Of a stretch of 64,000 nucleotides of DNA, positions 33,840 through 62,061 are shown piece by piece. Positions within the stretch are counted from its first letter, which is position 1, and each line of letters begins with the position of its first letter. A program made the position numbers and the translations under genes. The stretch comes from an uncultured Acidimicrobiales bacterium (GTDB taxonomy: Bacteria; Actinomycetota; Acidimicrobiia; Acidimicrobiales; JAHEJN01). Under the pieces are notes generated by a model. It did not search any database. It had not been told where the DNA came from and saw nothing but the letters and a program-made list of their open reading frames with translations. The stretch is taken from the NCBI GenBank assembly GCA_963787285.1, contig CAWBCM010000013.1:137265-201264 (forward strand), given 5' to 3'.

Positions 33840-35059
33840 ATGGCCGAGTTCTCACCCGAGCTGAACGAAGATCAACTCCAGATCCAGAAGTGGGTCCATG
33901 AGTTCGCCGTGAACGAGGTCCGACCGGTGGCTCACGAGTGGGACGAGCGCGAGGAATTCCCGTACCCCGTGGTCGAGGAAGCGGCCAAGATCGGGCTCTA
34001 CGGCTGGGAGTTCATGGCCGAGGCCATGATGAACGACCCCACCGGGCTCACCCTGCCGGTGGCCATCGAGGAGCTGTTCTGGGGCGACGCCGGCATCGGC
34101 ATGGCCATCATGGGCTCGGGTCTGGCCGCCGCCGGTATCGCGGCATCGGGCACCAGCGAACAGGTCATGGAGTGGGTGCCGCAGTGCTACGGCGACGCCG
34201 ACAACGTCCAGCTCGGAGCCTTCGCCGCCTCCGAACCCGACGCCGGGTCCGATGTCGGTGGCTACCGCACCCGGCGCCAAGTACGACGAGGCCACCGACG
34301 AGTGGGTGCTCAACGGCACCAAGGCCTGGATCACCAACGGCGGTATCGCCGACATCCACGTCGTGGTCGGCGGTGGTCGACCCCGAGCTCGGCTCGAAGG
34401 GTCACGCCAGCTTCATCGTGCCGCCCGGACACGCCCGGGCCTCAGCATGGGCCAGAAGTACAAGAAGCACGGCATCCGGGCCAGCCACACCGCCGAGGTG
34501 GTGCTCGACGACGTCCGGATTCCCGGCCGCTGCCTGCTCGGCGGCAAGGAGAAGCTCGATGAGCGTCTGGCCCGGGTCCGTGAGGGCAAGCACGGCAACG
34601 CCCAGGCCGCCATGCAGACGTTCGAGGCCACCCGCCCCGCCGTCGGCGCCCAGGCGATCGGTGTGGCCCGTGCCGCCTACGAGTACTCGCTCGACTACGC
34701 CAAGGAACGGCACGCGTTCGGTCGGCCGATCATCAAGAACCAGGCGATCGCGTTCATGCTGGCCGACATGGCCACCGAGATCGAGGCCTCCCGACTGCTC
34801 ATCTGGCGGGCCGCCTGGCTCGGCAAGCAGAAGCAAGTTCGTGAACGCCGAGGGTTCGATGGCCAAGCTCAAGGCCGGCCGCACCGCCACCTGGGTCACC
34901 GAACGGGCCATCCAGATCCTGGGCGGCTACGGCTACACCCGTGAGTACCCGGTCGAGCGCTGGCACCGCGACGCCAAGATCCACGACATCTTCGAAGGCA
35001 CCGAGCAGATCCAGCAGCTGGTGATCAGCCGGGCCATCTCGGGGATGCGAATCGAGTAG
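33840..35059 (+). pseudogene. Acyl-CoA dehydrogenase, frame broken about 4 times; its last 26 codons are the island attachment repeat
   Basis: ACAD segments [23 protein letters not shown]..., [60 protein letters not shown] and [14 protein letters not shown]...[20 protein letters not shown] alternate between three plus-strand frames. The switches lie at about 34272, 34370, 34432 and 34834. Confidence 0.85.
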
Positions 35060-35060
35060 C
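34981..35060. repeat. attL-like 80-bp direct repeat (3' end of the acyl-CoA dehydrogenase gene)
   Basis: 79/80 identical to 55427-55506. The single difference (GCC vs GCG) is synonymous in the ACAD frame. Confidence 0.8.
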
Positions 35061-35150: not shown

Positions 35151-35173
35151 CATCCCTACCCGGGGTAGGGATG
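35151..35173. repeat. 23-nt perfect palindrome overlapping the integrase start codon
   Basis: CATCCCTACCCGGGGTAGGGATG has 11-bp arms, and its terminal ATG is the int start. A half-site copy ATCCCTACCC lies just upstream (35143-35152). It belongs to the same stem family as 49606-49634 and 55299-55327. Confidence 0.6.
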
Positions 35174-36277
35174 AACGCGCTACGGTCGAGCCTCATGGCG
35201 ACCATCCGACAGCGGCGACCCGGGGTCTGGGAAGTGCGCGGCTACACGGGCAAGGACGTCGACGGGAAGTCGACCCAGGTGTCGCGGACCGTGTACGGCA
35301 CGAAGAAGGACGCCAAGGTGGTGGCCGCCGAGTTGACCGTGAAGCCGGCCCGCAACGCCGGCGGCCGCAAGCTGCGACAGCTGCTCGACGAGTGGATCGA
35401 CATCAAGACCCCCGGTTGGGCCGACCTCACGATTCGGGATCAGACGAGCCGGGCGAAGCAGGTCGCAGCCGACCCGATCGGCAACATGTCGGTCGCGTCG
35501 ATCGGCGTGTCCGACGTCGACCGTTGGGTCGCCCGTCTGCGAAAGGCCGGCGTGGGGGAGGGAGCGATCCGCAACCAGCACACCGTCTTGCGGTCAGCGC
35601 TACAGCAGGCGGTCCGGTGGGAGTGGATCGCCACGAACCCCGCCTCGAGCGCCCCGATCGAGAGCCCGAAGCGCCAGCAGCAGCGGACGCTCACCAAAGA
35701 CGAGGTGCGGGCCGTGATCGCCGCTGCCGCCGAGGTTCACGAGCTCGCCCCGCTGGCCTTCCGCCTCGGCGCCGAGATGGGTGCCCGTCGCAGCGAACTG
35801 GCTGCGCTCCGCTGGGACAAGTTCGTCGGCGACAAGGTGGTGGTCGATGGTCAGATCATCGTGTCGACCGATGCCGAGGGAGTTCGAGCGCCCAGGCTCA
35901 AGCCGACCAAGACCGGCAGCCGCCGAGTCGTGACCCTGAGCCCGGCGTTGCTGGCGATGGTCGAGGACGCTCGGGCGAAGTACGGCGACGTCACCACATG
36001 GCTGTTCACGCCAGATGCCGACCCACCCAACCCCGATCGCATCGGCTGGTGGTGGCGCCGCTCCCGAGAGCTGGCCGGCATTGATCCACGTTGGCGGCTG
36101 CACGACCTGCGGCACTGGTCGGCGACCGAGGCCATCGCCTCGGGACAGGACGTCCGCACGGTCGCCAACCGCCTCGGCCACGCCGATCCTGCGATGACGC
36201 TGAGGGTGTACGCACACGCTGTCGGCGCAGCAGACGAAGCGCTGGCCGGAATCCTCGGAGACGCACTCGGTGAATAG
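35171..36277 (+). CDS. int: Tyrosine-type site-specific recombinase (phage integrase family)
   Basis: 368 aa. It has an N-terminal SAM-like core-binding domain. The catalytic region carries R...HDLRHWSAT...LGHADPAMTLRVYAH (R, HxxR, H and Y residues). Confidence 0.9.
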   Translation: MNALRSSLMATIRQRRPGVWEVRGYTGKDVDGKSTQVSRTVYGTKKDAKVVAAELTVKPARNAGGRKLRQLLDEWIDIKTPGWADLTIRDQTSRAKQVAADPIGNMSVASIGVSDVDRWVARLRKAGVGEGAIRNQHTVLRSALQQAVRWEWIATNPASSAPIESPKRQQQRTLTKDEVRAVIAAAAEVHELAPLAFRLGAEMGARRSELAALRWDKFVGDKVVVDGQIIVSTDAEGVRAPRLKPTKTGSRRVVTLSPALLAMVEDARAKYGDVTTWLFTPDADPPNPDRIGWWWRRSRELAGIDPRWRLHDLRHWSATEAIASGQDVRTVANRLGHADPAMTLRVYAHAVGAADEALAGILGDALGE

Positions 36278-46316: not shown

Positions 46317-49300
46317 TCACATCGTGCGGGTCGCTTGGGTGTCGATGTCATGGACCCGGGCGGTGCTGATCACTTGGGCTGCCAGGTCACGCACGGTCGC
46401 CACGTCCAGCAACGCGCCGTGCGTGGTCAGCCGCTCGAATTCCCGATGTCCGACCAGTGCGCTCGCCCGGGCTGAACGCTCCTTGCGGTGGTGTGCCCAG
46501 TCCGGTAGCCACAAGAATCCGTGGTGATCCCTGTGTTCCTCGCTCGCACCGTCCAGCACAACGGCGGAAACGGTGTCACCGGAGGCAGCAGCGAGCTCGG
46601 CGGTTGCGCCGAGCACCAGGGCGAGACTCCATGTGTCATTCCATCCGATCGAGATCTCGAGCGCCTCGCTCAGTGGCTCGGTCGCGTCCTTTGCCCGATT
46701 CATTGCCATGGAGCAGCGGCCGACGTCGCAGAGAGCTTGGGCGATGCTTTGGCCAAGGCCTCGTGCGGCGTCGAGTGCCCGGGTCGCGCATGCGTCAGCC
46801 TCGTCGATGTCGCCGAGGGCCAGAGCAATGCTCACCATGTCGCTGAGACCGTGGAGCGCCAGCGCGGGCCGGCCGAGTGCGGTCAGCGCGGCAGTTGACT
46901 CGCGGAGCAGTTGGCGCGCGCCCGAGAGGTCACCGCGTCGGTGGGCGAGCAAACCGCGACACTCGGTGGTCCAGGCCCGGATCTGAGGAAGATGGGTCCC
47001 GGTTGTGATCGCGTCGAGTTCGGGAAGCAGTCTGTCGGCCTCGGCGAACTCGCACAGTGTTACTGCCGCACGGACGTGGTCGATCAACAGCCTGGGGCGG
47101 GTGGGATCGTTCTTCGCGACGAGCTCCTCCAGCGCCCGAGCTGTCAACTGGAGAGCGCCTCGTTCGTCGCCGATCGCGTCGAGATAGGCCGATCTGGCCA
47201 CCACCGCGAGCGCCATGAGCTCGCGCGAGTTTGCTCTCTGCGCCTCGGCGGTCATCTGTTCGGCCAGTTCGAGCGCCCGCGGTGGATTTCCCGTGTAGGC
47301 ATGACGAATGGCCAGCGCTTGTTGAATCTCGGCTCGAGCCAGAGACGGAGCGGCGTCGCTCAGCTCGAGAATCGATGGGAACCATCTGAGAAACTCGTGG
47401 CCCTGGGCCGTGTTCAGCCAATGCAACCTCAGCGCTGCACCGAGGGCCAAGGCGAGGTCCGGAATGCGGGTTTCGACAGACCACTGGAGGGCCCGCTCGA
47501 AATTGGTGGCATCGGCGGCGAGCCGCTCCAATGTCGATCCGTGATCGGGTGAGTCGTATCCCGGCTCGGAAGGGCACAGGCTGGCGAAGTGCAGCGCATG
47601 GCGTCGACGGAGTGCATCGTCTTCGCCCGATGCGACGAGCAGCTCGCGAGCGTAGGCGCTCAATGAGACGAGCATTCCGTAGCGGCGCGGTCGCTCCCGG
47701 GTGACCGTGAGCAACGATGCGTCCAGGAGGTTGTCCATCAGATCTACGACGTCGGCTCGGCTGATCCCCTCACCCGAACAGACGCTTTCGGCCGCTTCCA
47801 TGTCGAATCCGCCGTCGAACACGGCCAGACGCCGGAACAACGTCTGGGCATCGACATCGAGAAGTTCGTAGCTCCACTCGATCGTCGCTCGAATCGTCGA
47901 GTGGCGCTCCGCGCCGCCGGCGACATTGGACGTGAGCACACCAAGTCGGTCGTCGAGACGGGCCAACAGCTCCACTGGTGACAGCAAGCGCAGCCGGGAT
48001 GCAGCCATTTCGATCGCGAGCGGCATCGCATCGAGGCGTCGACAAATCGATGCCACCACACGCGGTTCGACATCGTCGACCTCGAACCAAGGGTGAGTTT
48101 CGCGGGCCCGCTCGATGAACAATCGCACACAATCCGAATCCAGCAGTGCGGTCGGGTCGGCCGTTTCGATTTCGAGATCGAGACCAAGCGGTGGGATCGG
48201 CCAGACCTGTTCGCCCGGAACACGCAATGACCTTCGACTCGTGGCCAGAATCGTCAGTCCCGGGCCACTGGCCAGCAGACGGGAGACTATTTCGGCGACA
48301 GCCTCTGACAGGTGCTCGCAGTTGTCGACAATCAGCAGCGACCTGCACGACCCGAGCGCGGCTGCCACCTCTCCGAGCAGCGGGCGTGTCGGATGGGCCG
48401 GGACGTCGAACACTTCTGCAATCATTCGGATCACCCCGACGTCGTCGGCGGTGTCGGCCAACTCAACCGACCAGACACCATCGGGAAACTGATCGATCAG
48501 TCGGCGACCGACCTCCATGGCGAGGGATGTCTTGCCCATTCCCCCGAATCCGGTGACGGTGACCAACCGGTTCGTCGACAGATGAGCCATCACGCTCGCC
48601 AGTTCGGTCTCGCGGCCAACGAAGCTCGCAACCCGCTGGGGGAGATTGCTGGTCGGTCGCTCCGGGCCGGCTGGTACGACGACAGGCAACTCATGGCGAA
48701 GGATCTGCGTTTCGAGACGACGCAACGCATCGCCTGGTTCGATACCCAACTCCTCACCCAGCAGCGTTCGGGCCGAGCCGTACGCGCGTAGTGCCTCTGC
48801 CTGCTGATCACCGCGGTAAAGCGCCAACATCAGTTGGGCCCAGAACCGCTCGCGCAGAGGGAACTCAACCGTCAACTGCTGCAGCTCACCGACCAGGTCG
48901 CGGTGGCGACCGAGTTCGAGATCGGCATCGATGCGATCCTCGAGACAGACCAATCGGAGTTCCTCCAGCCGCGCGATCTCACCCTGCGCGAACTCCTCGT
49001 ACCGGAAATCCTCCAACGCCTCGCCGCGCCACAGCGCCAGTGCCTCAGCCAGGACGTTCCTCGCCCGAGCGTCCTGGCCCGACGCCAACATCTCCCGACC
49101 GTCGGACGCCAACCGCTCGAAAACCGTCGCATCGAGGTCTCCGGCCGACAGAGCAAGGCGGTAGCCCCGATCGGCTGTCTCGATCACCTCGGCCTGCCGC
49201 GCCCCGTCCACCGGCCGCAAAGATTTCCGGAGCTGAGAGACGTGGTACCGGAGTGTCTTGACTCCACCATCGGGTGGCTCTTCGCCCCAGAGCGCCTCGC

Positions 49301-49436
49301 TCAACTCCTCGACCGACACAACGCGGTTCGCGTTCACGATCAGCACACCAAGGATCAGCCGCGGTAGGCGGGCCGTGACGCGAACGTCGGCATCACCAAC
49401 GCGAGCAACCAGCGCCCCCAAGAGCCGAAACCTCAT
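46317..49436 (-). CDS. AfsR/SARP-family large regulator: OmpR-type winged helix + BTAD + NB-ARC/STAND P-loop ATPase + TPR-like C-terminus
   Basis: 1039 aa. MRFRLLG...YRL, BTAD (ALALWRGEALEDF...FWAQLMLALYRGDQQAEAL), P-loop GFGGMGKTS, and a long helical repeat tail. Confidence 0.85.
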   Translation of the reverse strand: MRFRLLGALVARVGDADVRVTARLPRLILGVLIVNANRVVSVEELSEALWGEEPPDGGVKTLRYHVSQLRKSLRPVDGARQAEVIETADRGYRLALSAGDLDATVFERLASDGREMLASGQDARARNVLAEALALWRGEALEDFRYEEFAQGEIARLEELRLVCLEDRIDADLELGRHRDLVGELQQLTVEFPLRERFWAQLMLALYRGDQQAEALRAYGSARTLLGEELGIEPGDALRRLETQILRHELPVVVPAGPERPTSNLPQRVASFVGRETELASVMAHLSTNRLVTVTGFGGMGKTSLAMEVGRRLIDQFPDGVWSVELADTADDVGVIRMIAEVFDVPAHPTRPLLGEVAAALGSCRSLLIVDNCEHLSEAVAEIVSRLLASGPGLTILATSRRSLRVPGEQVWPIPPLGLDLEIETADPTALLDSDCVRLFIERARETHPWFEVDDVEPRVVASICRRLDAMPLAIEMAASRLRLLSPVELLARLDDRLGVLTSNVAGGAERHSTIRATIEWSYELLDVDAQTLFRRLAVFDGGFDMEAAESVCSGEGISRADVVDLMDNLLDASLLTVTRERPRRYGMLVSLSAYARELLVASGEDDALRRRHALHFASLCPSEPGYDSPDHGSTLERLAADATNFERALQWSVETRIPDLALALGAALRLHWLNTAQGHEFLRWFPSILELSDAAPSLARAEIQQALAIRHAYTGNPPRALELAEQMTAEAQRANSRELMALAVVARSAYLDAIGDERGALQLTARALEELVAKNDPTRPRLLIDHVRAAVTLCEFAEADRLLPELDAITTGTHLPQIRAWTTECRGLLAHRRGDLSGARQLLRESTAALTALGRPALALHGLSDMVSIALALGDIDEADACATRALDAARGLGQSIAQALCDVGRCSMAMNRAKDATEPLSEALEISIGWNDTWSLALVLGATAELAAASGDTVSAVVLDGASEEHRDHHGFLWLPDWAHHRKERSARASALVGHREFERLTTHGALLDVATVRDLAAQVISTARVHDIDTQATRTM

Positions 49437-49856: not shown

Positions 49857-50662
49857 TCAACGCCCTGACGCGGCCTGCTCGTACTTGCGCACTGCGAGCG
49901 GAGCGAACACGGCGATGATGATCACCACCCAGCCGAGCGAGTAGAGCGCGGCGTGCTCGAGCGGCCATGCCGTGGGCTCCGGCGTTCCCTCCGGGATGTT
50001 CCCGAAGTGCTCACGGGCCGCCTGGGCCACGGCTGACACCGGGTTCCACTCGGCGAAGACGCGTAGCGGGGTTGGGAAGTCGTCGGTCGGTACGAAGGTG
50101 TTGGCGATGAAGGTCAGCGGGAAGATCACCAGCGACGAGGCGTTGTTGATCGCTTCCACGCTGCCGACGCTCAGGCCGACGTAGGCCATGATCCACGAGA
50201 ACGCATACGCGAACAGCAACACCAGTCCGAAGCCCAGCAGCGCGTTGCCGATCCCGTTGCTGATGCGCCACCCCACTGCGTAGCCTGCGGCAACCATCAC
50301 GATGGTCGACAGCACGTTGTAGATGACGTCGCTTGCTGTTCGGCCGAACACGACGGCCGAGCGCGACATGGGCAGCGACCGGAACCGGTCGATGATGCCT
50401 TTCTGCATGTCGTCGGCCAGACCGAGGCCGGTGAACGTGGACCCGAAGGTGAGCATCATGACGAAGGCTCCGCCGATGAGGAACTCCCGGTAGGAGCCGC
50501 CCTCGATGTCGATTGCGCTCCCGAAGACATAGGCGAACAGCAGCACGAAGACGAGCGGCATGATCACCACGGCCACGAGGAGCTCGGGCATGCGCGTGAT
50601 CTTGATGATGTTGCGACGGGCGACGGTTGCGCCGTCGGTGAGAGCAAGGTTGATGCGTTCCA

Positions 50663-50666
<4 letters not shown>
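49857..50666 (-). CDS. ABC-2 type transporter permease (DrrB-like)
   Basis: 269 aa with 6 TM segments and the ABC-2 family pattern. It is 4-nt coupled to the upstream ATPase gene. Confidence 0.85.
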
Positions 50667-51695
<1,029 letters not shown>

Positions 51696-51821
51696 GCGTC
51701 GACCGTGCATCACCCCGGTCGAGGCTCGGCGGTCGCCGGGTAGGAGGGCGGTCGACGTGGCGGCCGACGGGCTCGACCGAGGCTCAACCGGCCCACAACC
51801 GACCGGTTCGAGGATCTCGGC

Positions 51822-54800
51822 ATGGCCACGGTTATGGGAAGCTTGCTGCTCGAGGACGGTGAACGGAGAGGCTCGGCAGTGCAGATTCGTCTTCTCGGCG
51901 GCGTCGATGCCGTCACCGACGACGGGGACCCGATCGACATCGGCCCCGCCAAGTGCCAAGCCCTGCTCGCCGCGCTCGCGCTCTCGGCGGGCTCGGCGTT
52001 GCCGGTCTCGCGTCTCGTCGAGCTGGTCTGGGGCCAGGACCCTCCCCGGACGGCCGAGAAGACGCTGCAGTCCTACGTCACCCGGCTTCGCAAGGGCCTC
52101 GGGCCGGACTCGATCGAGCGGACCGGGGCCGCCTACCGCCTGGTCGTCGACCCCGCATCGGTCGACGTCACACGATTCCAGCGCCACTTGGCAGCCCGCG
52201 ACGTCGGCGCCGCCCTCCGGGAGTGGACGGGAACTCCACTTGCCGGGCTGGACGCGCCCGGGTTGACGGGAACCGTGGACGGGCTGTTGGAGCAGTGGTT
52301 CGGCGCAGTGGAGAGCGATCTCGCGCTGCTGGTCGATCGTGACCCCGCCGAGGCCGTGGCCGTCCTGACCGAGCTGACGGCGCAGCATCCGTTCCGCGAA
52401 GGCCTCTGGGCGTTGCTGATGACCGCCCTGTACCGCGGCGGACGCCAGGCCGATGCACTTGGCGCCTACCGGCGCGCCCGCGAGCACCTCATCGAGGAGC
52501 TGGGCGTTGAGCCCGGACCCCGCTTGCGTGAGCTCGAGGCGCTGATTCTGGGCCAAGATGACCGCCTCGACATCGCGCCGGCCTCGACCACCGCGCTCAT
52601 GCCACCGACCGGCACCGTGACCTTCGGCTTCAGCGACATCGAGGGGTCCTCCCGGCTGTGGGCCGCACACCGGCAGGACATGGCCAGCGCCGTTGCCCGC
52701 CACGACGACATCGTGCGTGCCATCGCCGCCGACCACGACGGCTACGTCTTCGCCACCGGTGGCGACTCGTTCGGCGTGGCATTCCACCGCGCCGGCGACG
52801 CCGCCGGATGGGCCGCCGACCTGCAACAGGCCATGGCCCGCGAGAGGTGGCCCGGCCACATCGAGCTGAGGGTCCGGATCGGCCTGCACACCGGTGAGGC
52901 CGAGGAGCGGGCCAACGACTACTTCGGGCCGGCGGTCAATGTGGCCGCACGGATCGCGGCCGCAGGGCACGGCGGCCAGACGCTGGTCTCGCCGGTGACG
53001 GCCGCGCTGGTCGACGGTCGCGGCCTACACGATCTCGGCACGTTCCGATTCGACGGCGTCGGTGCCGACCTGAACATCTTCCAGCTCGGCGACGGCGAGC
53101 ACCCTCCGCTGCGTACCGACGAGACCCGTCGCGGGAACCTTCCTCGGCGAACGGGCCGCCTCTTCGGGCGCGATCGTGAGCTCGACGTCGTCGCCCAGAC
53201 CATCGCCGCCAGCCCCATCGTCACCCTGGTCGGCCCCGGCGGCATCGGCAAGACCAGGCTGGCGTTGGCCGCGGCCCGGATCGCCGAGGTCGACCTCCAC
53301 GACGGGGCCTGGTTGGTCGAGCTGGCCGAGATCGCATCGTCGGCTGATGTCGCTCGGGCGCTCGCCGACCTGCTCGACGTGACCGAGAGCTCCGGCCACA
53401 CGCTCACCGAGTCGATCGTCGCCCACCTCGAGCGCCGCCAGACGCTGGTGCTGTTCGACAACTGCGAGCACGTCGTCGAGGGCGTCGCCAGTCTGGCACA
53501 GACGATGGCCAGCGGCTGCCCAGAGGTGAAGGTGCTGGCGACGTCTCGCGAGGGTCTCGGCGTGGCTGAGGAGCGACTCGTCGTCGTCGGCCCTCTCGAC
53601 GCTGCGGGGCCGGCCGTCGAGCTGTTCGACGAGCGGGCTCGTTCCGCCGACTCTTCCTTCGATCTCGATGCCGATCGCCACGAGGTGGAGGAGATCTGCC
53701 GGCGTCTCGACGGCGTCCCGCTGGCCATCGAGCTCGCCGCATCCAGGGTTCGGAGCCTGTCGCCGGCCGACTTGGTCGCGCGCCTGGATGATCGGTTGCG
53801 CCTTCTCACCGGAGGCCGTCGGAGGAGTGTCGAGCGCCATCGGACGCTGCGGGCGACGATCCAGTGGTCGTATGACCTGCTCACACCGCCCGAGCAAGTC
53901 CTGTTCCGGCGGCTGTCGAGCTTCGCGGGCTCGTTCGACCTCGCGGCGGCCGAAGCCGTCGCCGCCGACGACGAGCTGCCGGTCGAAGAGCTGAGCGGCC
54001 TTCTGGGCGACCTGGTCGGGCGGTCGATGGTTGTGGTCGAATCGGGCGCCTACGGCCGTCGGTTCCGTTTGCTGGAGACCATGCGGCAGTTCGCCGCCGA
54101 GCACCTCTCCGAGGCCGGCGCCAGCGATCGGACGGCAGCACGGCACGCCGGCTTCGTTCGCGACGAGGTCACGCGGCTCGGCGGGCTGCTCGTGAGTAAC
54201 GACGAGATCGAAGGCGCGGCGCGACTGGCCGAGCTGTGGCCGAACGTGCGCGCGGCTGTCCACTGGGCCTTGGCCGTCGAAGACCGTGACCTCACCACGG
54301 AGTTGCTGCGGCCGATCGCCCTCCAGATGTTCGTCCGCCGTGGCCTCGGCGAGATCGCCGACTGGACCGAGGGTCTGTTGGCGATCACGCCTCCCGACGA
54401 CGAGGAGACCATTGCGACCGGTCTCCTGTGGGCGGCGATGCACTACTCGATGACCCAGGACCGCGAGCACTTCCGTCAGCTCATCGAGGACAGCGGAGCC
54501 CCCGACCACCTTTTCGTTCGTTACGCCTACCTCGTCGGTGTCGAGGACGACGATTTCACGACGCTGGAGGTGGGCCCGCTCGTCGTCGCCGAGATGCGGC
54601 GGCTTGGTCAGGAGTCGTACGCCCGTGTGTTCGAGGTATTCACGGCGGCCGCGTTGATGACGTCCGGTCAGTTCGCCGAGGCCCGGGCCAGACACGAAGC
54701 CCTGGCTGAGCTGTTCCGGGCCGAGGGCCCGCCCTCATTCCTCAATTGGACCCTCTACCTGCTCGGTGCGTCCGCGGCCTTCCAAGGGGACCATGAGCTG

Positions 54801-55271
54801 GCCGATCGCTACTGGGAGGAGTTGACTGCCATCGAATTGCCCCCGAGGACCAACTCGCCCAACGAGACGCTGTCGGCCCGAGCGGCGTTTCGGCAGGGAC
54901 GCCGCCACGAGGCCTTCCGGATCCTTCGGAGCTACATCGACGAGCTGCTCGAGGTCGACAACATGGCCGGCACCGCAATCGTCGGCATCGAGTTCGTCAA
55001 CATGATGACCGCCGTCGGTCGCCTGATCGATGCCGGTGTGATTCTCGGGCACCTCGACGCAACCGGACTGCTCGGCGTCGAGGGCCCGGGATTCAAGGTG
55101 CTCGTCACCGACGCAGTCTTGGTCGTGGGCGCTGACCCGGACGCGGCAGCGGCCCGGGAGCGACGCAGCCGCCCGCCGGCTGGACGAGCGCTCCGCGCTG
55201 TCTTACATGGGGCGTGTCCTCGGCGAGCTTGTCGACGGTGCCGCTCGGCAATGACGAGGCCCGCCAAGTGA
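51822..55271 (+). CDS. SARP (wHTH + BTAD) - class III adenylate/guanylate cyclase domain - NB-ARC/STAND ATPase - TPR-like multidomain regulator
   Basis: 1149 aa. The more likely start is the GTG at 51879, with GGAGAG 9 nt upstream. Cyclase motifs are FGFSDIEGS, GGDSF, RIGLHTGE and GPAVNVAARI. The P-loop is GPGGIGKT. The tail is long and helical. Confidence 0.85.
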   Translation: MATVMGSLLLEDGERRGSAVQIRLLGGVDAVTDDGDPIDIGPAKCQALLAALALSAGSALPVSRLVELVWGQDPPRTAEKTLQSYVTRLRKGLGPDSIERTGAAYRLVVDPASVDVTRFQRHLAARDVGAALREWTGTPLAGLDAPGLTGTVDGLLEQWFGAVESDLALLVDRDPAEAVAVLTELTAQHPFREGLWALLMTALYRGGRQADALGAYRRAREHLIEELGVEPGPRLRELEALILGQDDRLDIAPASTTALMPPTGTVTFGFSDIEGSSRLWAAHRQDMASAVARHDDIVRAIAADHDGYVFATGGDSFGVAFHRAGDAAGWAADLQQAMARERWPGHIELRVRIGLHTGEAEERANDYFGPAVNVAARIAAAGHGGQTLVSPVTAALVDGRGLHDLGTFRFDGVGADLNIFQLGDGEHPPLRTDETRRGNLPRRTGRLFGRDRELDVVAQTIAASPIVTLVGPGGIGKTRLALAAARIAEVDLHDGAWLVELAEIASSADVARALADLLDVTESSGHTLTESIVAHLERRQTLVLFDNCEHVVEGVASLAQTMASGCPEVKVLATSREGLGVAEERLVVVGPLDAAGPAVELFDERARSADSSFDLDADRHEVEEICRRLDGVPLAIELAASRVRSLSPADLVARLDDRLRLLTGGRRRSVERHRTLRATIQWSYDLLTPPEQVLFRRLSSFAGSFDLAAAEAVAADDELPVEELSGLLGDLVGRSMVVVESGAYGRRFRLLETMRQFAAEHLSEAGASDRTAARHAGFVRDEVTRLGGLLVSNDEIEGAARLAELWPNVRAAVHWALAVEDRDLTTELLRPIALQMFVRRGLGEIADWTEGLLAITPPDDEETIATGLLWAAMHYSMTQDREHFRQLIEDSGAPDHLFVRYAYLVGVEDDDFTTLEVGPLVVAEMRRLGQESYARVFEVFTAAALMTSGQFAEARARHEALAELFRAEGPPSFLNWTLYLLGASAAFQGDHELADRYWEELTAIELPPRTNSPNETLSARAAFRQGRRHEAFRILRSYIDELLEVDNMAGTAIVGIEFVNMMTAVGRLIDAGVILGHLDATGLLGVEGPGFKVLVTDAVLVVGADPDAAAARERRSRPPAGRALRAVLHGACPRRACRRCRSAMTRPAK

Positions 55272-55426: not shown

Positions 55427-55506
55427 CCACGACATCTTCGAAGGCACCGAGCAGATCCAGCAGCTGGTGATCAGCCGGGCGATCTCGGGGATGCGAATCG
55501 AGTAGC
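55427..55506. repeat. attR-like 80-bp direct repeat
   Basis: 79/80 identical to 34981-35060. It encodes [25 protein letters not shown] plus a stop but has no ACAD sequence upstream. Confidence 0.8.
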
Positions 55507-56216: not shown

Positions 56217-56256
56217 GCAGAACAGCCCGACCGCGCTCAATGAGCCACGCGATGCT

Positions 56257-56543
56257 GCCTGCTCGTACTTGCGCACTGCGAGCGGAGCGAACACGGCGAT
56301 GATGATCACCACCCAGCCGAGCGAGTAGAGCGCGGCGTGCTCGAGTGGCCATGCCGTGGGCTCCGGCGTTCCCTCCGGGATGTTCCCGAAGTGCTCACGG
56401 GCCGCCTGGGCCACGGCTGACACCGGGTTCCACTCGGCGAAGACGCGTAGCGGGGTTGGGAAGTCGTCGGTCGGTACGAAGGTGTTGGCGATGAAGGTCA
56501 GCGGGGAGATCACCAGCGACGAGGCGTTGTTGATCGGTTCCAC
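56257..56543 (-). pseudogene. 3' fragment (about 95 codons) of an ABC-2 permease gene, duplicate of 49873-50159
   Basis: 287 bp, with 3 mismatches to the intact copy by my alignment. It lacks the N-terminal two-thirds and its own start. Confidence 0.85.
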
Positions 56544-56575
56544 CGCCTCGCCGCCCGAGGCGCTTTCCCGCGTGC

Positions 56576-57523: not shown

Positions 57524-57826
57524 ATGCTGGAACGACTGACGCAGCGGACACTGGTGCTGACCGCCGCGGTGTTCTGCATCGCAGGCATCGTCGAGGGCAT
57601 CCGGATCGACCGCCCGAGTGTCGCCGTGCTCTTCGCTCTCGTGCTCGGCGTGGGCAGCGTCATCGCCCGTGACAAGGCCACGCAGCGACCGATCCGGGTC
57701 CGACCGGATCTGCGTGAGTGGCTCGACGACACCGCGTCGGTCACCGGCGACTCGATCGAGGAGCTGAGCAACGCGGCGCTGAGCAGCTACCGGGCCGAGC
57801 TCTCCGGGTCCCGCGATGCCCGCTGA
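57524..57826 (+). CDS. Small protein: two N-terminal TM helices + C-terminal ribbon-helix-helix-like tail
   Basis: GAGGGAG lies 6 nt upstream of the ATG. TM helices are [14 protein letters not shown] and [15 protein letters not shown]. The tail [27 protein letters not shown] looks RHH-like. It overlaps the next gene by 11 nt. Confidence 0.45.
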
Positions 57827-60400
57827 CCCGAATCTGGTCGCCCGTGTCGACGGCAGCGGGCTCGCAAACGAGCGCGCGGGCGGGAAGGGTTCGTCCCTCG
57901 ACGTCCTCGTGTCCCTGGGCGCCAGGGTTCCCGAGACGAGCATCGTCACGACGGCGGCCTACCGGCTGTTCGCATCGGAGCCTTCGATCGCCGCGTTGCT
58001 CGAAGAGCTCCGGACGGGCGAGCTGCCGCTGCCGCAGGATCACGAACGCGAGCAACAGCGCGTCGACGACGCGTTCCTCTCCGTGGAGTTGCCGGAACCG
58101 ATCGTCGAGGCGATCGCTGCGTTCGGACCGCCGATCGGTGGCGAAGCGACGGTCGCCGTCCGTTCCTCGGCGACTGCGGAGGACATGGCATCGGCGTCGT
58201 TCGCCGGCCAGTACCGCTCCCTGCTGGACGTGGGTCCCGACGACCTGAGTAGGGCGGTCCGGCTGGTCTGGGCGTCGCTATGGCACCCTGCGCCGAGGAG
58301 CTACCGGCGATTCCGGAACGTCCCAGAGGACGATCTCTCCATGGCCGTCGTCCTGATGACGATGCTCGACCCGTCGCATGCGGGGGTGATCTTCACCAGC
58401 GATCCAGGTGGTTCACCGGATCATCTGCGGATCGAGATCGTCGAGGGCCTCGGCGAAGCGCTCGTGTCGGGCGAAGCCACACCCGAGGCCTTCGTGGTCC
58501 CCCACGACGAGAGCGTCGAGCGGCTCGCGGAGGTCAGACCAGTCTTCGGTGAGGTGGTGGCCGAGGCGCTGCGCATCGAGCGCGAGCTCGGCTCGCCGCA
58601 AGACATCGAGTGGGCCGTCGACCACGACGAGCTCTACCTGGTCCAGGCTCGCCCGATCACGACCGAGTCGATCGAAGTCGGAACCGACGACGGGTTCGAC
58701 GTCAACGTCGAACCAATGGCGAGCTTCACGACCGCGGGCATAGGGGAGTCCCTGCCCGGCGTGGTGCCGCCGCTCGACTGGACGGTGAACTCCTGGACCC
58801 TCGAGAACGGGTTCCGGGGGCTCTTCCACCGTCTCGGTGGGTGCCCGGACGGGCTCGCCGGGCCCCATGCCCTCATCGGTCGCTTCCGGGGACGCGCCGC
58901 GCTCAACCTCGACCGGATGCTGCAGGCCGCAAGCACCATCCCCGGAGCGTCGCCGGAGGAGCTCGAGCACCAGTACTTCGGTGAGGCCGTGCGGTCCGAG
59001 GACGCACCGCCCGCTCCGACCCCACCGAAGGCCGGTGCTGCCCAGGGCTTGCGCACGCTGCGCGCTCGGCAGACGGCGGCCCAGGAGTCCGAGGTCGTCA
59101 CGCTCGCCGTGGACCGACTCCTCGACATCGAACCCGAGCTCCGCCTCCTCGAAGATGACGGCCTGCTCGCCTACCGGTCGCGCCTGCTGCATCTCGCCAC
59201 CCGGGTGGTGACCGCAGAGGTCGCGATCGCGGCCATGGCCACGGCCAGCTACCGCAGCATCGAGGTGTTCCTCAGCAAGCAGCTCGGTGACGCCGAGGCC
59301 AGCCGAGCGGCGCAGCTCATGACCTCGGGGACCGGTGGGACGCGCCGGGCATTGATCGCACTGGCATTGAGTGACCTCGTGGAGGAGTCACAGGCGAGCC
59401 CGGAGCTCCGCGAGGCCACGAGCAACGACGTCTGGTCCGAGGCCCAGTTAGCGCTCGTCCGCTTCCCGAGCGGTCGTGGCTTCATCGAGCACTTCGGCGA
59501 GGCACTTCGTCGCGCCGGGTCGACGTCCTACTTCGGCGGTCCGACCTGGGCCGAGGTGCCCGACCTCGCGTGGCTCACGTTCCGTCACGAGGTCATCGCG
59601 CCCCCCCACGACGACGACGCCGAGCGACGTGCCGCACGCGACGAGATCGAAGACCGACTCACACGGAGCTCGGACTGGTCCTACACCCGATGGAACAGCG
59701 GTCAGCTCTTCGACATCCGTCGGCGGTTCTTCCGCCGCGAGTCCGCCGACGCGGCCGAGTTCCTCGATCGGCGCGAGCGCACGAAGGCCGCGATGTTGAA
59801 GCTCGGCGGAGCCCTCCGCCGGCTCAACCTCGAGTTCGGAGCACGGCTGGTGGAGTCCGGTCGGCTCGACGACCCCGAGGACGTCCGCTTCCTCTCGAAC
59901 GCCGAGCTCGTGGCGCAGATGGCTGGTGGCGGCCCGACCACCGACGTCGTGGCGATCCGCCGGCGACGCCTCGACGAGGCCGAGCTCGATGGTCCGCTCC
60001 CCCGGGTGTTCGAAGGGACGCCGGACGCTGCCGAAGCGGCGAAGATCGAGGGCGTCCGGGTCGAGGGGTGGGGCGCCAGCCCGGGACGTTACGAGGGCCC
60101 GGCCCGGGTCGTCCGTTCGGTCAGCGCCAGCTCTCTCCGCCGAGGCGATGTCCTGGTCGCCCGCTCGACCGATGCGTCCTGGGCGCCGTTGTTCCTGCTC
60201 GCCGGCGCCATCGTGGTGGAGGACGGCGGCCCGCTCTCACACGCTGCGATCGTCGCCCGTGAGCTCGGCATGCCGGCCGTGCTCAACGTTCCCGGCATCA
60301 TGGACCGGATCGAGTCGGAGCCCGAGGAGGTGGCGCTCCGCGTCGACGGGACCAGAGGTGAGGTGATCATTCACGAGCCGGCGGTCGCCGGGGAGATCGA
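57816..60400 (+). CDS. PEP/pyruvate-binding + PEP-utilizing swivel-domain enzyme with rifampicin-phosphotransferase-like architecture; native 3' end lost at a sequence junction
   Basis: N-terminal PPDK_N/ATP-grasp (GGKGSSL..., [23 protein letters not shown]). A long helical middle region follows. The C-terminal mobile His domain is [46 protein letters not shown]. There is no stop codon before the aldolase-like sequence begins, so the end coordinate is approximate. Confidence 0.75.
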
Positions 60401-61124
60401 CCTCCGCGATCCGGTGCCGTTGCGGGACCAGGCGCGCAAGGTGGTCGACATGGCGCACAAGCTCGGCGTCACGGTCGAGGGCGAACTCGGCTGCCTGGGT
60501 TCGCTGGAAACCATGCGCGGCGACAAGGAAGACGGCCATGGCACCGAGTCGACGATGACACGCGAGCAATTGCTGACCGACCCCGAGCAGGCGGCGGACT
60601 TCGTCAAGAAGACCCAGCTCGACGCGTTGGCGATCGCCATCGGCACCAGCCACGGCGCCTACAAGTTCACCCGCAAGCCCACCGGCGACATCCTGGCCAT
60701 CGACCGCATCAAGGACATCCACAAGCGCATCCCGAACACGCACCTGGTGATGCACGGCAGCTCGAGCGTGCCGCAGGACCTGCTGGCCGTGATCCGCGAG
60801 TTCGGCGGCGACATGAAGGAGACCTACGGCGTGCCGGTCGAAGAGATCCAGGAGGCCATCAAGCACGGCGTGCGCAAGATCAACATCGACACCGATGTGC
60901 GCCTGGCCATGACCGCGGCGATCCGCAAGTACCTGTTCGAGAACCCGAGCAAGTTCGATCCGCGCGACTACCTCAAGCCCGCGCGCGAGGCCGCGAAGGG
61001 CATCTGCAAGCAGCGCTACCAGCAGTTCGGCTGCGAAGGCCAGGCCGCCAAGATCAAGCCCCAGACCTTGTCGGCGGTGGCGCAGCGCTACGCCAGCGGG
61101 GCCCTGGCGCAGACCGTCGTCTGA
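60401..61124 (+). pseudogene. fba: C-terminal ~two-thirds of a class II fructose-bisphosphate aldolase, fused in frame to the upstream ORF
   Basis: [23 protein letters not shown]...[13 protein letters not shown]...[11 protein letters not shown]...VRKINIDTD is unmistakably class II FBA (CbbA/FbaA type). The N-terminal ~150 residues, including the first metal ligands, are absent. Confidence 0.85.
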
Positions 61125-62061
61125 TGGCGGCATCGCCGCAGTCGTCGCTGCGCTCGCAGCCGCAGCTGCAGAGCAGCTTGCGGTCGCTTCCATTGGTCGC
61201 GCGGGGCAAGGTGCGCGACAACTACGCCGTCGGTGAGGATCGCCTGCTGATGGTCGCCAGCGACCGCCTGAGCGCGTTCGACGTCGTGATGGGCGAGCCG
61301 ATCCCGGGCAAGGGCGAATTGCTCACGCGCATGGCGCTGTTCTGGTTCGAACGCCTGGCCCATGTCGTGCCGAATCACCTCACCGGCGACGACCCCGAAA
61401 GCGTCGTCACGGCGGACGAGCGCGCGCAGGTGCGCGGCCGCTCGATGCTGGTCAAGCGCCTCAAGCCCCTGCCGGTCGAGGCCGTGGTGCGCGGCTACCT
61501 GGCCGGCAGCGGCTGGAAGGAGTACCAGGTCAGCGGCGAGGTCTGCGGCGTCAAGCTGCCGCCGGGCCTGCGCAACGCGGGCAAGCTGCCGGCAGCCGAT
61601 CTTCACGCCGGCGACCAAGGCCGAGATGGGCGAGCATGACGAGAACATCCCATTCGAACGCATGGCGCAGATCGTCGGCGCAGACGTTGCGCGCGCAGGT
61701 GCGCGAGGTCTCGATCCGCCTGTACGACGAAGCGGCTGCGTTCGCGCTCACCAAGGGCATCATCATCGCCGACACCAAGTTCGAGTTCGGCCTCGATGCC
61801 GACGGCACGCTGACCCTGATGGACGAGGTGCTGACGCCCGACTCGTCGCGCTACTGGCCGCTCGAGGGCTACGCGCAGGCCCTGGCCGAGGGCCGCAATC
61901 CGCCGAGCTACGACAAGCAGTTCGTGCGCGACTGGCTCGAGAGTGCGCGCGTCGACGGCGCGCCGTGGAACAAGCGCGCGCCGGCGCCCTCGTTGCCGGC
62001 CGATGTCGTGGCCCACACCGCGGCCAAGTATCGCGAAGCGCTGACGCGGCTCACTGGTTGA
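61124..62061 (+). pseudogene. purC: Phosphoribosylaminoimidazole-succinocarboxamide synthase (long type), two frameshifts
   Basis: [32 protein letters not shown]..., then [23 protein letters not shown] in a second frame, then [31 protein letters not shown] in a third. The switches lie at about 61591 and 61680. Confidence 0.85.

Follow-up and report, generated by a model that had tools for sequence, protein, structure and literature searches.

We describe here a large regulatory gene, 51822-55271 (+), in a window of 64,000 nucleotides (the whole stretch of DNA that was analysed) from an uncultured Acidimicrobiales bacterium (GenBank assembly GCA_963787285.1, contig CAWBCM010000013.1, positions 137,265 to 201,264). 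The open reading frame begins at an ATG and, as it stands in the window, encodes 1149 residues, which read in order as a SARP module (an OmpR-type winged helix and a BTAD, or bacterial transcriptional activation domain), a class III nucleotide cyclase domain, a NOD of the STAND ATPase kind and a run of helical repeats; with a frameshift corrected, the coding sequence ends at 55254. We consider it moderately likely that the protein is a SARP activator, gated by its STAND module, that acts on its own gene and on a divergently transcribed exporter, and in which the cyclase domain serves mainly as a structural, dimerising connector and retains catalysis only uncertainly.

How might such a protein work? 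By likeness to AfsR and other STAND proteins we infer a switch in which the C-terminal helical/TPR sensor and the NOD would keep the regulator inactive in the absence of a ligand and ATP, which together would activate it. The N-terminal SARP domains would then occupy heptamers spaced at 11 bp in the region between the regulator and exporter genes and recruit RNA polymerase, so that two leaderless promoters would be activated, the regulator's own (positive autoregulation) and the one serving the divergent DrrAB-like ABC-2 exporter. In this view the widespread cyclase-NOD-TPR proteins would be the source from which the cyclase domain came, along with the NOD-TPR unit; as a module that dimerises head to tail, it would link oligomerisation of the NOD to the pairing of the SARP heads.

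Domain architecture, distribution and origin of the fusion

An initial annotation, made from the DNA letters and their translations, had given the domain order as SARP, cyclase, STAND ATPase and repeats. That order is correct, because Pfam and the module-by-module structural matches of an AlphaFold2 model (built with 42 homologues; mean pLDDT 82.8) support it. The winged helix occupies residues 20-107 (51879-52142 (+); Pfam Trans_reg_C at residues 46-96, 32.7 bits against a cut-off of 26.2) and the BTAD residues 115-244 (52164-52553 (+); Pfam match at residues 122-243, 102 bits, E 4.5e-29). The secondary structure of the model agrees with the winged helix, and Foldseek searches of the PDB matched the SARP module to the SARP domain of AfsR in a transcription initiation complex (8K60, TM 0.84) and to EmbR (2FEZ). 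The class III cyclase homology domain, residues 262-423 (52605-53090 (+)), matches Guanylate_cyc (PF00211) at residues 261-398 with 49.4 bits against a cut-off of 21.9, and in Foldseek it superposes on the adenylyl cyclase Ma1120 (4WPA) with TM 0.85-0.92 and on the cyclase domain of Rv1900c with TM 0.90. The NOD, an NB-ARC STAND ATPase at residues 446-765 (53157-54116 (+)), matches NB-ARC at residues 465-685 (29 bits, cut-off 23.5) and contains the Walker A motif GPGGIGKT (53232-53255 (+)) and the Walker B motif LVLFDNCEH (53442-53471 (+)), with invariant positions G471-K477, D546 and C548-H550; in Foldseek it matches the STAND-TPR protein 6MFV, Apaf-1, CED-4 and plant NLRs.

From residue 768 on the protein is a helical arm and TPR-like sensor region (54123-55254 (+), the end assuming the frameshift corrected). 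In the model residues 768-1131 are entirely helical, with pLDDT mostly above 85, and Pfam finds only weak TPR matches (TPR_12, TPR_6) at residues 942-1002. No GerE (LuxR helix-turn-helix) match was found in the regulator by Pfam, and the C terminus is made of helical repeats. The helical part had been put at about 550 residues; its length is about 365 residues, or about 460 if measured from the end of the NB-ARC match. The third-position G+C content of the reading frame, 0.85, is a typical coding value.

The protein thus combines features of several known kinds of regulator. Like AfsR and the other large SARPs (SARP-NOD-TPR proteins, Streptomyces), it has a winged helix and BTAD (36% identity), a STAND NOD with Walker A and B motifs, a C-terminal helical/TPR sensor and, as predicted here, an operator of 11-bp direct repeats beside a -10 element. 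It differs from them by the cyclase domain of about 190 residues between BTAD and NOD, and the NCBIfam AfsR equivalog NF053617 scores 151 bits against a cut-off of 1430, matching only residues 17-254, the SARP part. AfsR is reported to have an F/Y-HD switch motif (bioRxiv 10.64898/2026.09.02.748808), whereas the near-invariant winged-helix motif of the NOD here, RFRLLET at residues 747-753, has no visible His-Asp; these positions were matched by eye only, because phmmer could not align AfsR's NOD, and a phmmer search of the PDB with the isolated NOD did not retrieve AfsR. In AfsR itself the C-terminal domains inhibit and ATP activates (PMC10936776).

Proteins of the Rv0386, Rv1358 and Rv2488c type from M. 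tuberculosis share with the regulator a cyclase that leads straight into a 'DNCEH'-type NOD, with helical repeats after it; the regulator differs from them in having an N-terminal SARP and no C-terminal LuxR/GerE helix-turn-helix. The contrast that the initial annotation drew with the AfsR type, which has no cyclase, and with the Rv0386 type, which ends in a LuxR helix-turn-helix, holds. The regulator also resembles the SARP-LALs (PimR, SanG, FilR). These join a SARP to an LAL-type ATPase half and are described as being without a cyclase signature and without a LuxR helix-turn-helix (PMC10972967), and it is by that description, rather than by the PimR sequence, that the cyclase domain sets the regulator apart from them. 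The cyclase domain is short-armed, as in the cyclase-NOD-TPR proteins, and its closest solved relative is Ma1120, the minimal class III adenylyl cyclase of Mycobacterium avium (E 6e-20, 31-35% identity, root-mean-square deviation 1.7-2.7 Å). The metal and substrate Asp residues of the two align, but Ma1120 has a Lys (VVKSQGD) where the regulator has an Ala (VFATGGD), and Ma1120 is a stand-alone enzyme.

One might think, as the initial annotation did, that such a layout is unusual. It is in fact very common in the databases and not a rarity. A search of 5.8 billion proteins gave 6455 matches at E <= 1e-10. If the identical sequence and one partial protein of 850 residues are set aside, the best 120 clusters at 90% identity all align over at least 91% of the query, at 55-76% identity; in 112 of the 120 PF00211 occurs together with BTAD. 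The best 150 cluster representatives at 50% identity, classified with hidden Markov models built from our own alignment, comprise 87 SARP-cyclase-NOD proteins, 45 cyclase-NOD proteins and 11 SARP-NOD proteins, the rest being fragments. The full fusion is present in Ilumatobacteraceae, Acidimicrobiaceae and other Acidimicrobiales, Mycobacteriales, Ornithinimicrobium, Parafrankia sp. FMc2 and Pseudonocardia aurantiaca, under database names such as 'AfsR/SARP family transcriptional regulator', 'BTAD domain-containing putative transcriptional regulator' and 'predicted ATPase/class 3 adenylate cyclase'. The published SARP classes are small, medium, large and SARP-LAL, none of them with a cyclase domain (PMC10972967; bioRxiv 10.64898/2026.09.02.748808). 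The possibility had been raised at the outset that the architecture would prove common and already characterised. Common it is; as for characterisation, neither a paper describing a SARP-cyclase fusion nor experimental work on the SARP-cyclase-NOD-TPR architecture was found in the literature searched, where the 2004 survey of actinobacterial cyclases (PMC2447327) is represented by its abstract and references. The layout is a so far undescribed variant of known regulator kinds, abundant in databases.

What evolutionary step produced the fusion? Against the AfsR-type paralogue encoded 2.4 kb away (46317-49436), residues 20-243 and 438-776 of the regulator align with 36-39% identity, and residues ~244-437, the cyclase domain of some 190 residues, are an insert relative to that paralogue. 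Cyclase, linker and NOD align as a single unit, with 40-44% identity, to abundant SARP-less cyclase-NOD-TPR proteins of about 900 residues; this homology runs from residue ~255 to ~820-980 (about 560 residues) and includes the linker, ...PPLR...NLP...GRE. The unfused proteins occur in Eremiobacterota, Chloroflexota, Proteobacteria, Mycobacterium and others, and in them the cyclase is the N-terminal effector and the sole output. Since cyclase, linker and NOD are homologous as one unit to the unfused proteins, the family looks like a cyclase-NOD-TPR STAND protein that has gained an N-terminal SARP.

In a rough neighbour-joining tree of the NOD, the query's clade also holds cyclase-less SARP-NOD-TPR members and heavily degenerate cyclase domains. 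A group of 50%-identity representatives (P0139, P0143-P0146, P0149 and P0151; 600-960 residues, 47-62% identical in the NOD-TPR part) have the SARP joined directly to the NOD, and these proteins, inside the query's own clade, either lost the cyclase domain or never acquired it. Sphaerisporangium L042 was considered as a full-length fusion and rejected: its match is about 170 residues too short, and it is therefore a cyclase-less SARP-NOD-TPR protein.

Catalytic positions of the cyclase domain

The initial annotation took the middle segment to be a cyclase homology domain with apparently intact catalytic motifs. The PF00211 match supports the domain, and the motifs quoted are all present in the translation (FSDIEGS at residue 270, GGDSF at 313, RIGLHTGE at 352 and NDYFGPAVNVAARI at 365, with the P-loop GPGGIGKT at 471); the claim of intactness stands only in part. 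A residue-level alignment with Ma1120 and a trypanosome cyclase shows that the domain has five of the six canonical catalytic residues. Written as first metal Asp, Lys position, second metal Asp, substrate Asp, Asn and Arg, the query's hexad is DADDNR: the metal residues D272 and D315, the adenine-specifying substrate residue D366 and the transition-state residues N373 and R377 are kept, and Ala311 stands where the substrate-specifying Lys is expected. The substrate pair, Lys-Asp in adenylyl and Glu-Cys/Ser in guanylyl cyclases, is thus incomplete. A further substitution, Asp411, replaces the basic residue of the beta7-beta8 'L-K/R-G/D' motif. That position is Arg or Lys in 41 of 43 unfused relatives, but Asp or Glu in 13 of 16 representatives of the query clade and in 110 of 119 immediate-family proteins. 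Since the Asp/Asn/Arg set is kept but Ala replaces the Lys and Asp the basic residue, the domain is most likely a weak or non-canonical cyclase, to judge from its sequence. Residual activity of that weak or non-canonical sort in this particular copy is possible, if doubtful.

The immediate family is loose at the same positions. Among its 119 members, position 311 is Ala in 104 and Ser in 12, and is never Lys; the substrate position 366 is Asp in only 30 and Gly in 65; position 373 is Asn in 62 and Ile in 44; the first metal position, 272, is Glu in 26; and Arg377 is lost in 14. The commonest hexad is DADGIR (40 of 119), the query's DADDNR being found in 16. The catalytic positions lie between the 26th and 76th percentiles of conservation among the 175 columns of the domain, and across the family the domain is as conserved as the NOD (65-67% versus 68-69% identity). 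The unfused relatives differ in keeping their catalytic residues far more strictly: of 133 loci, 71 have DKDDNR and 30 have DSDDNR.

Our reading of these patterns is that catalysis would be dispensable, or not consistently selected, in the SARP-fused clade, and that the fold would be retained for another reason. What might that reason be? Class III cyclase domains are obligate head-to-tail dimers, and dimerisation or coupling is for that reason the obvious candidate. The role of cyclic nucleotide monophosphate (cNMP) generator that the initial annotation envisaged is best called uncertain. The view that the whole family is a dead cyclase nevertheless had to be softened, as the 50%-identity representatives include many canonical and conserved Lys-less sites; a fully canonical DKDDNR is present in 31 of 88 other SARP-cyclase-NOD representatives, which counts against a simple 'dead enzyme' reading. 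A distant SARP-cyclase-NOD-TPR protein from an Ilumatobacter sp. metagenome-assembled genome (L027, 1471-4920) has a SARP part 33% identical to the query's, a canonical DKDDNR and a Lys at the equivalent of position 411. To judge by these residues, it is likelier than the window protein to be an active adenylyl cyclase fused to a SARP.

The divergent exporter and the shared promoter region

Transcribed away from the regulator is a DrrAB-like ABC-2 exporter operon, 49857-51695 (-), recognised by Pfam, by tblastn matches in two frames and by conserved synteny. It consists of an ABC ATPase gene (50663-51695 (-); Pfam, tblastn), frameshifted near 51120-51124, and an ABC-2 permease gene (49857-50666 (-); Pfam). 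A divergent ABC_tran and ABC2_membrane pair adjoins the orthologues in loci L081, L082, L085, L166 and L168 as it does in the window; the orthologues with this pair are P0003, P0006, P0012, P0002 and P0016 (66-76% identical), in neighbourhoods that otherwise differ. The association has limits. Orthologue P0014 has a different ABC ATPase as its neighbour; the relatives at 50-60% identity, L001-L008, do not share the ABC neighbour, with the exception of Parafrankia L005; and the paralogues P0009 and P0020 have no such pair and lie in other contexts. The P0014 locus (L167, 1-3243) carries upstream an ABC ATPase of 619 residues and a class II lanthipeptide-synthetase-like gene (DUF4135 and LANC_like), which hints that some family members lie beside clusters for ribosomally synthesised and post-translationally modified peptides.

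The intergenic region between regulator and ABC genes is 126 bp long and contains seven heptamers, where 0.38 are expected. Facing the regulator is a predicted SARP box, 51773-51801 (+), with three heptamers (TCGACCG, TCAACCG and ACAACCG) at an exact period of 11 bp; it is unique in the window, with 0 expected. Eight nucleotides past the last heptamer comes a -10-like hexamer, GAGGAT (51810-51815 (+)), and 6 nucleotides further the ATG at 51822. In silico, the predicted operator fits the published SARP rule, by which the repeats are 11 or 22 bp apart and the 3' repeat is 8 bp from the -10 element (PMC10936776). Three heptamers with 4-nucleotide spacers are known for DnrI, ActII-ORF4 and PimR, and such repeats are what the SARP-LALs bind (PMC10972967). 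The putative ABC-side promoter, 51702-51755 (-), has the heptamer TCGACCG at 51749-51755 and 51716-51722, then 8 nucleotides, a -10-like CACGGT at 51702-51707, 6 nucleotides and the ATG at 51695. The placing of the ATG 6-7 nucleotides past the -10-like element suggests leaderless mRNAs from both promoters, and supports 51822 as the true start, even though disorder is predicted for residues 1-17.

The same layout recurs. A degenerate composite pattern (three heptamers at an 11-bp period, 8 nucleotides, NANNNT, 6-7 nucleotides, ATG) occurs six times in the 3.85 Mb of window plus loci, each time at the regulator's start (window, L086, L081, L082, L166 and L168), and a layout with one heptamer (heptamer, 8 nucleotides, -10-like element, 6-7 nucleotides, ATG) is found at the ABC ATPase start in the window, L081, L082 and L166; as the patterns were derived from the loci in which they were counted, the counts are descriptive and not an independent test. 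The proposed -10-like hexamers have only A2 and T6, and a sigma-70 consensus scan of 51600-51950 found no promoter. No other SARP is present among the called genes within 8 kb on either side in L081 and L082. Taken together, the layout and synteny point to a regulator that most likely activates its own gene and the neighbouring drug-efflux pump. The paralogue mentioned above is a second large SARP on the same stretch of inserted DNA (46317-49436 (-); SARP-NOD-TPR, 1039 residues, no cyclase, 36-39% identical to the regulator), downstream of the ABC operon.

The integrative island and the alternative readings

The initial annotation placed the gene on a mobile island, and the borders of that island can be drawn. 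A tyrosine integrase gene (35171-36277) lies beside the left copy of a direct repeat of about 80 nucleotides (attL, 34981-35060 (+)), which is at the 3' end of an acyl-CoA dehydrogenase gene. The right copy (attR, 55427-55506 (+)), identical at 79 of 80 positions, begins about 170 nucleotides past the regulator's stop. The repeats bracket an integrative island of about 20.4 kb, of lower G+C content, in which the regulator is the last gene. Its cargo includes a GyrI-like protein, a GNAT acetyltransferase, a DUF1706/DinB protein, an ArsR-AHSA1 pair, a SnoaL_2 protein and an HTH_17 protein, as well as the cyclase-less SARP and the ABC exporter.

Single frameshifts are present in three conserved genes in a stretch of less than 21 kb. 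One is the acyl-CoA dehydrogenase gene (about 34.9 kb), upstream of attL and thus not part of the inserted DNA; the others are the divergent ABC ATPase gene, near 51120-51124, and the regulator, at 55162. In the regulator, alignment and frame comparison with an intact metagenomic relative, L086, reveal an extra G at 55162 (+), so that the last ~36 residues are out of frame; translation in the +1 frame gives back the C terminus conserved in the family, ...LDERSALSYMGRVLGELVDGAARQ, with a stop that ends at 55254. Because a frameshift is also present outside the island, we suspect assembly indel errors rather than gene decay.

Several points weigh against our favoured reading, that of a SARP activator with a mainly structural cyclase domain. 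On the DNA side, besides the descriptive nature of the promoter counts, the upstream heptamers facing the ABC genes are irregularly spaced (14, 22, 23 or 33 bp), L168 and L085 do not fit the ABC-side layout, and in this genome the SARP encoded at 46317-49436 could bind the heptamers or compete for them. On the enzyme side, the residue at 411 is one that we take, from mammalian cyclase structures, to be a phosphate contact. Among 45 unfused cyclase-NOD representatives DSDDNR is found in 23 and DADDNR in 9; hexads of this kind, Lys-less but with the other five residues intact, are the norm among the nearest unfused proteins. Because they recur in proteins whose sole output is the cyclase, a Lys-less cyclase of this lineage is probably active, and the query copy, too, may be. 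The true, synteny-sharing orthologues also mostly keep five of the six residues (DADDNR three times, DSDDNR, DADNNR and DADDNQ).

These observations lend some weight to a different view, in which the regulator is a dual-output STAND protein: NOD oligomerisation, driven by a ligand, would dimerise an active cyclase and produce a cNMP, while the SARP heads would activate the exporter and the regulator gene. The product would probably be cAMP, as the adenine-specifying Asp is kept. All of D272, D315, D366, N373 and R377 are there, the fold matches active cyclases at TM 0.9, and the strictly conserved Lys-less sites of the unfused effectors, the canonical sites elsewhere in the SARP-fused proteins and the residues of the synteny-sharing orthologues all fit an enzyme. 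We nonetheless think it rather unlikely. The basic residue so regularly conserved in the unfused relatives is Asp411 here, close relatives lose Arg377, Asn373, Asp366 or the entire domain, and no cNMP-binding domain was found among the open reading frames scanned on the island and beside it, which agrees with the initial annotation's remark that no cNMP-binding effector is visible nearby. More specific still, and a little more doubtful again, is the idea of an NLR-like two-output switch carried on an integrative island, in which a single oligomerisation event, triggered by a ligand, would drive SARP action at a bidirectional leaderless promoter, for the exporter and for autoregulation, and would also dimerise a Lys-less class III cyclase. 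Could the gene instead be a decaying pseudogene on a degrading island, its sensor inactivated by a real frameshift at 55162? The frameshift does remove a conserved terminal helix, and the adjacent ABC ATPase gene is likewise frameshifted. Yet there is only one indel in 3.4 kb of otherwise 97% identity to L086, the coding-like third-position composition is retained, and the frameshift in the acyl-CoA dehydrogenase gene outside the inserted DNA implicates the assembly; we regard decay as very unlikely. The least probable account of all, and one largely refuted, is that of a Pycsar-, CBASS- or Avs-like system defending against phages by nucleotide signalling, with a STAND sensor and a cyclase, an analogy which the initial annotation had drawn. 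A general STAND-plus-cyclase resemblance and the mobile-island location speak for it, and nothing else does. We rejected it, as no PADLOC defence model matched the regulator or its neighbours; besides, the neighbours that were scanned include no cNMP-binding effector, the N terminus is a bona fide SARP with predicted matching operator repeats, and the conserved neighbour is an ABC exporter.

The flank to the right of the island holds three further features. Just outside the right repeat, 56247-56546 (-) is a remnant 82% identical to the C-terminal 100 residues of the L081 ABC-2 permease, which may have been left behind by a previous copy of the regulator-exporter module. Beyond it an open reading frame of 1102 residues, 57816-61124 (+), is an in-frame fusion of a protein with PPDK_N and PEP-utilizers domains and residues ~115-277 of a class II fructose-bisphosphate aldolase; its first ~870 residues are laid out like rifampin-phosphotransferase-like enzymes, and the N-terminal half of the aldolase is missing. 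Finally, 61636-62061 (+) matches only the C-terminal part of SAICAR synthetase (profile positions 140-222 of 233), a truncated or frameshifted housekeeping gene.

What do these proteins mean for the SARP regulators more generally? Dozens of 50%-identity clusters, mostly from Acidimicrobiia and other Actinomycetota, are absent from the published SARP classification. This is an annotation gap, moderately interesting and not a surprise. If the two-output switch were true, a diffusible cyclic nucleotide would broadcast a local drug-efflux response as a global second-messenger signal. Under the reading that we favour, of a SARP activator joined to its STAND switch by a mainly structural cyclase domain, as under that one, the family forms a natural series, from canonical cyclase sites through Lys-less and degenerate ones to loss of the whole domain. 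Such a series is useful for asking what job a cyclase domain has in a transcription factor, and how STAND effectors become pseudoenzymes.

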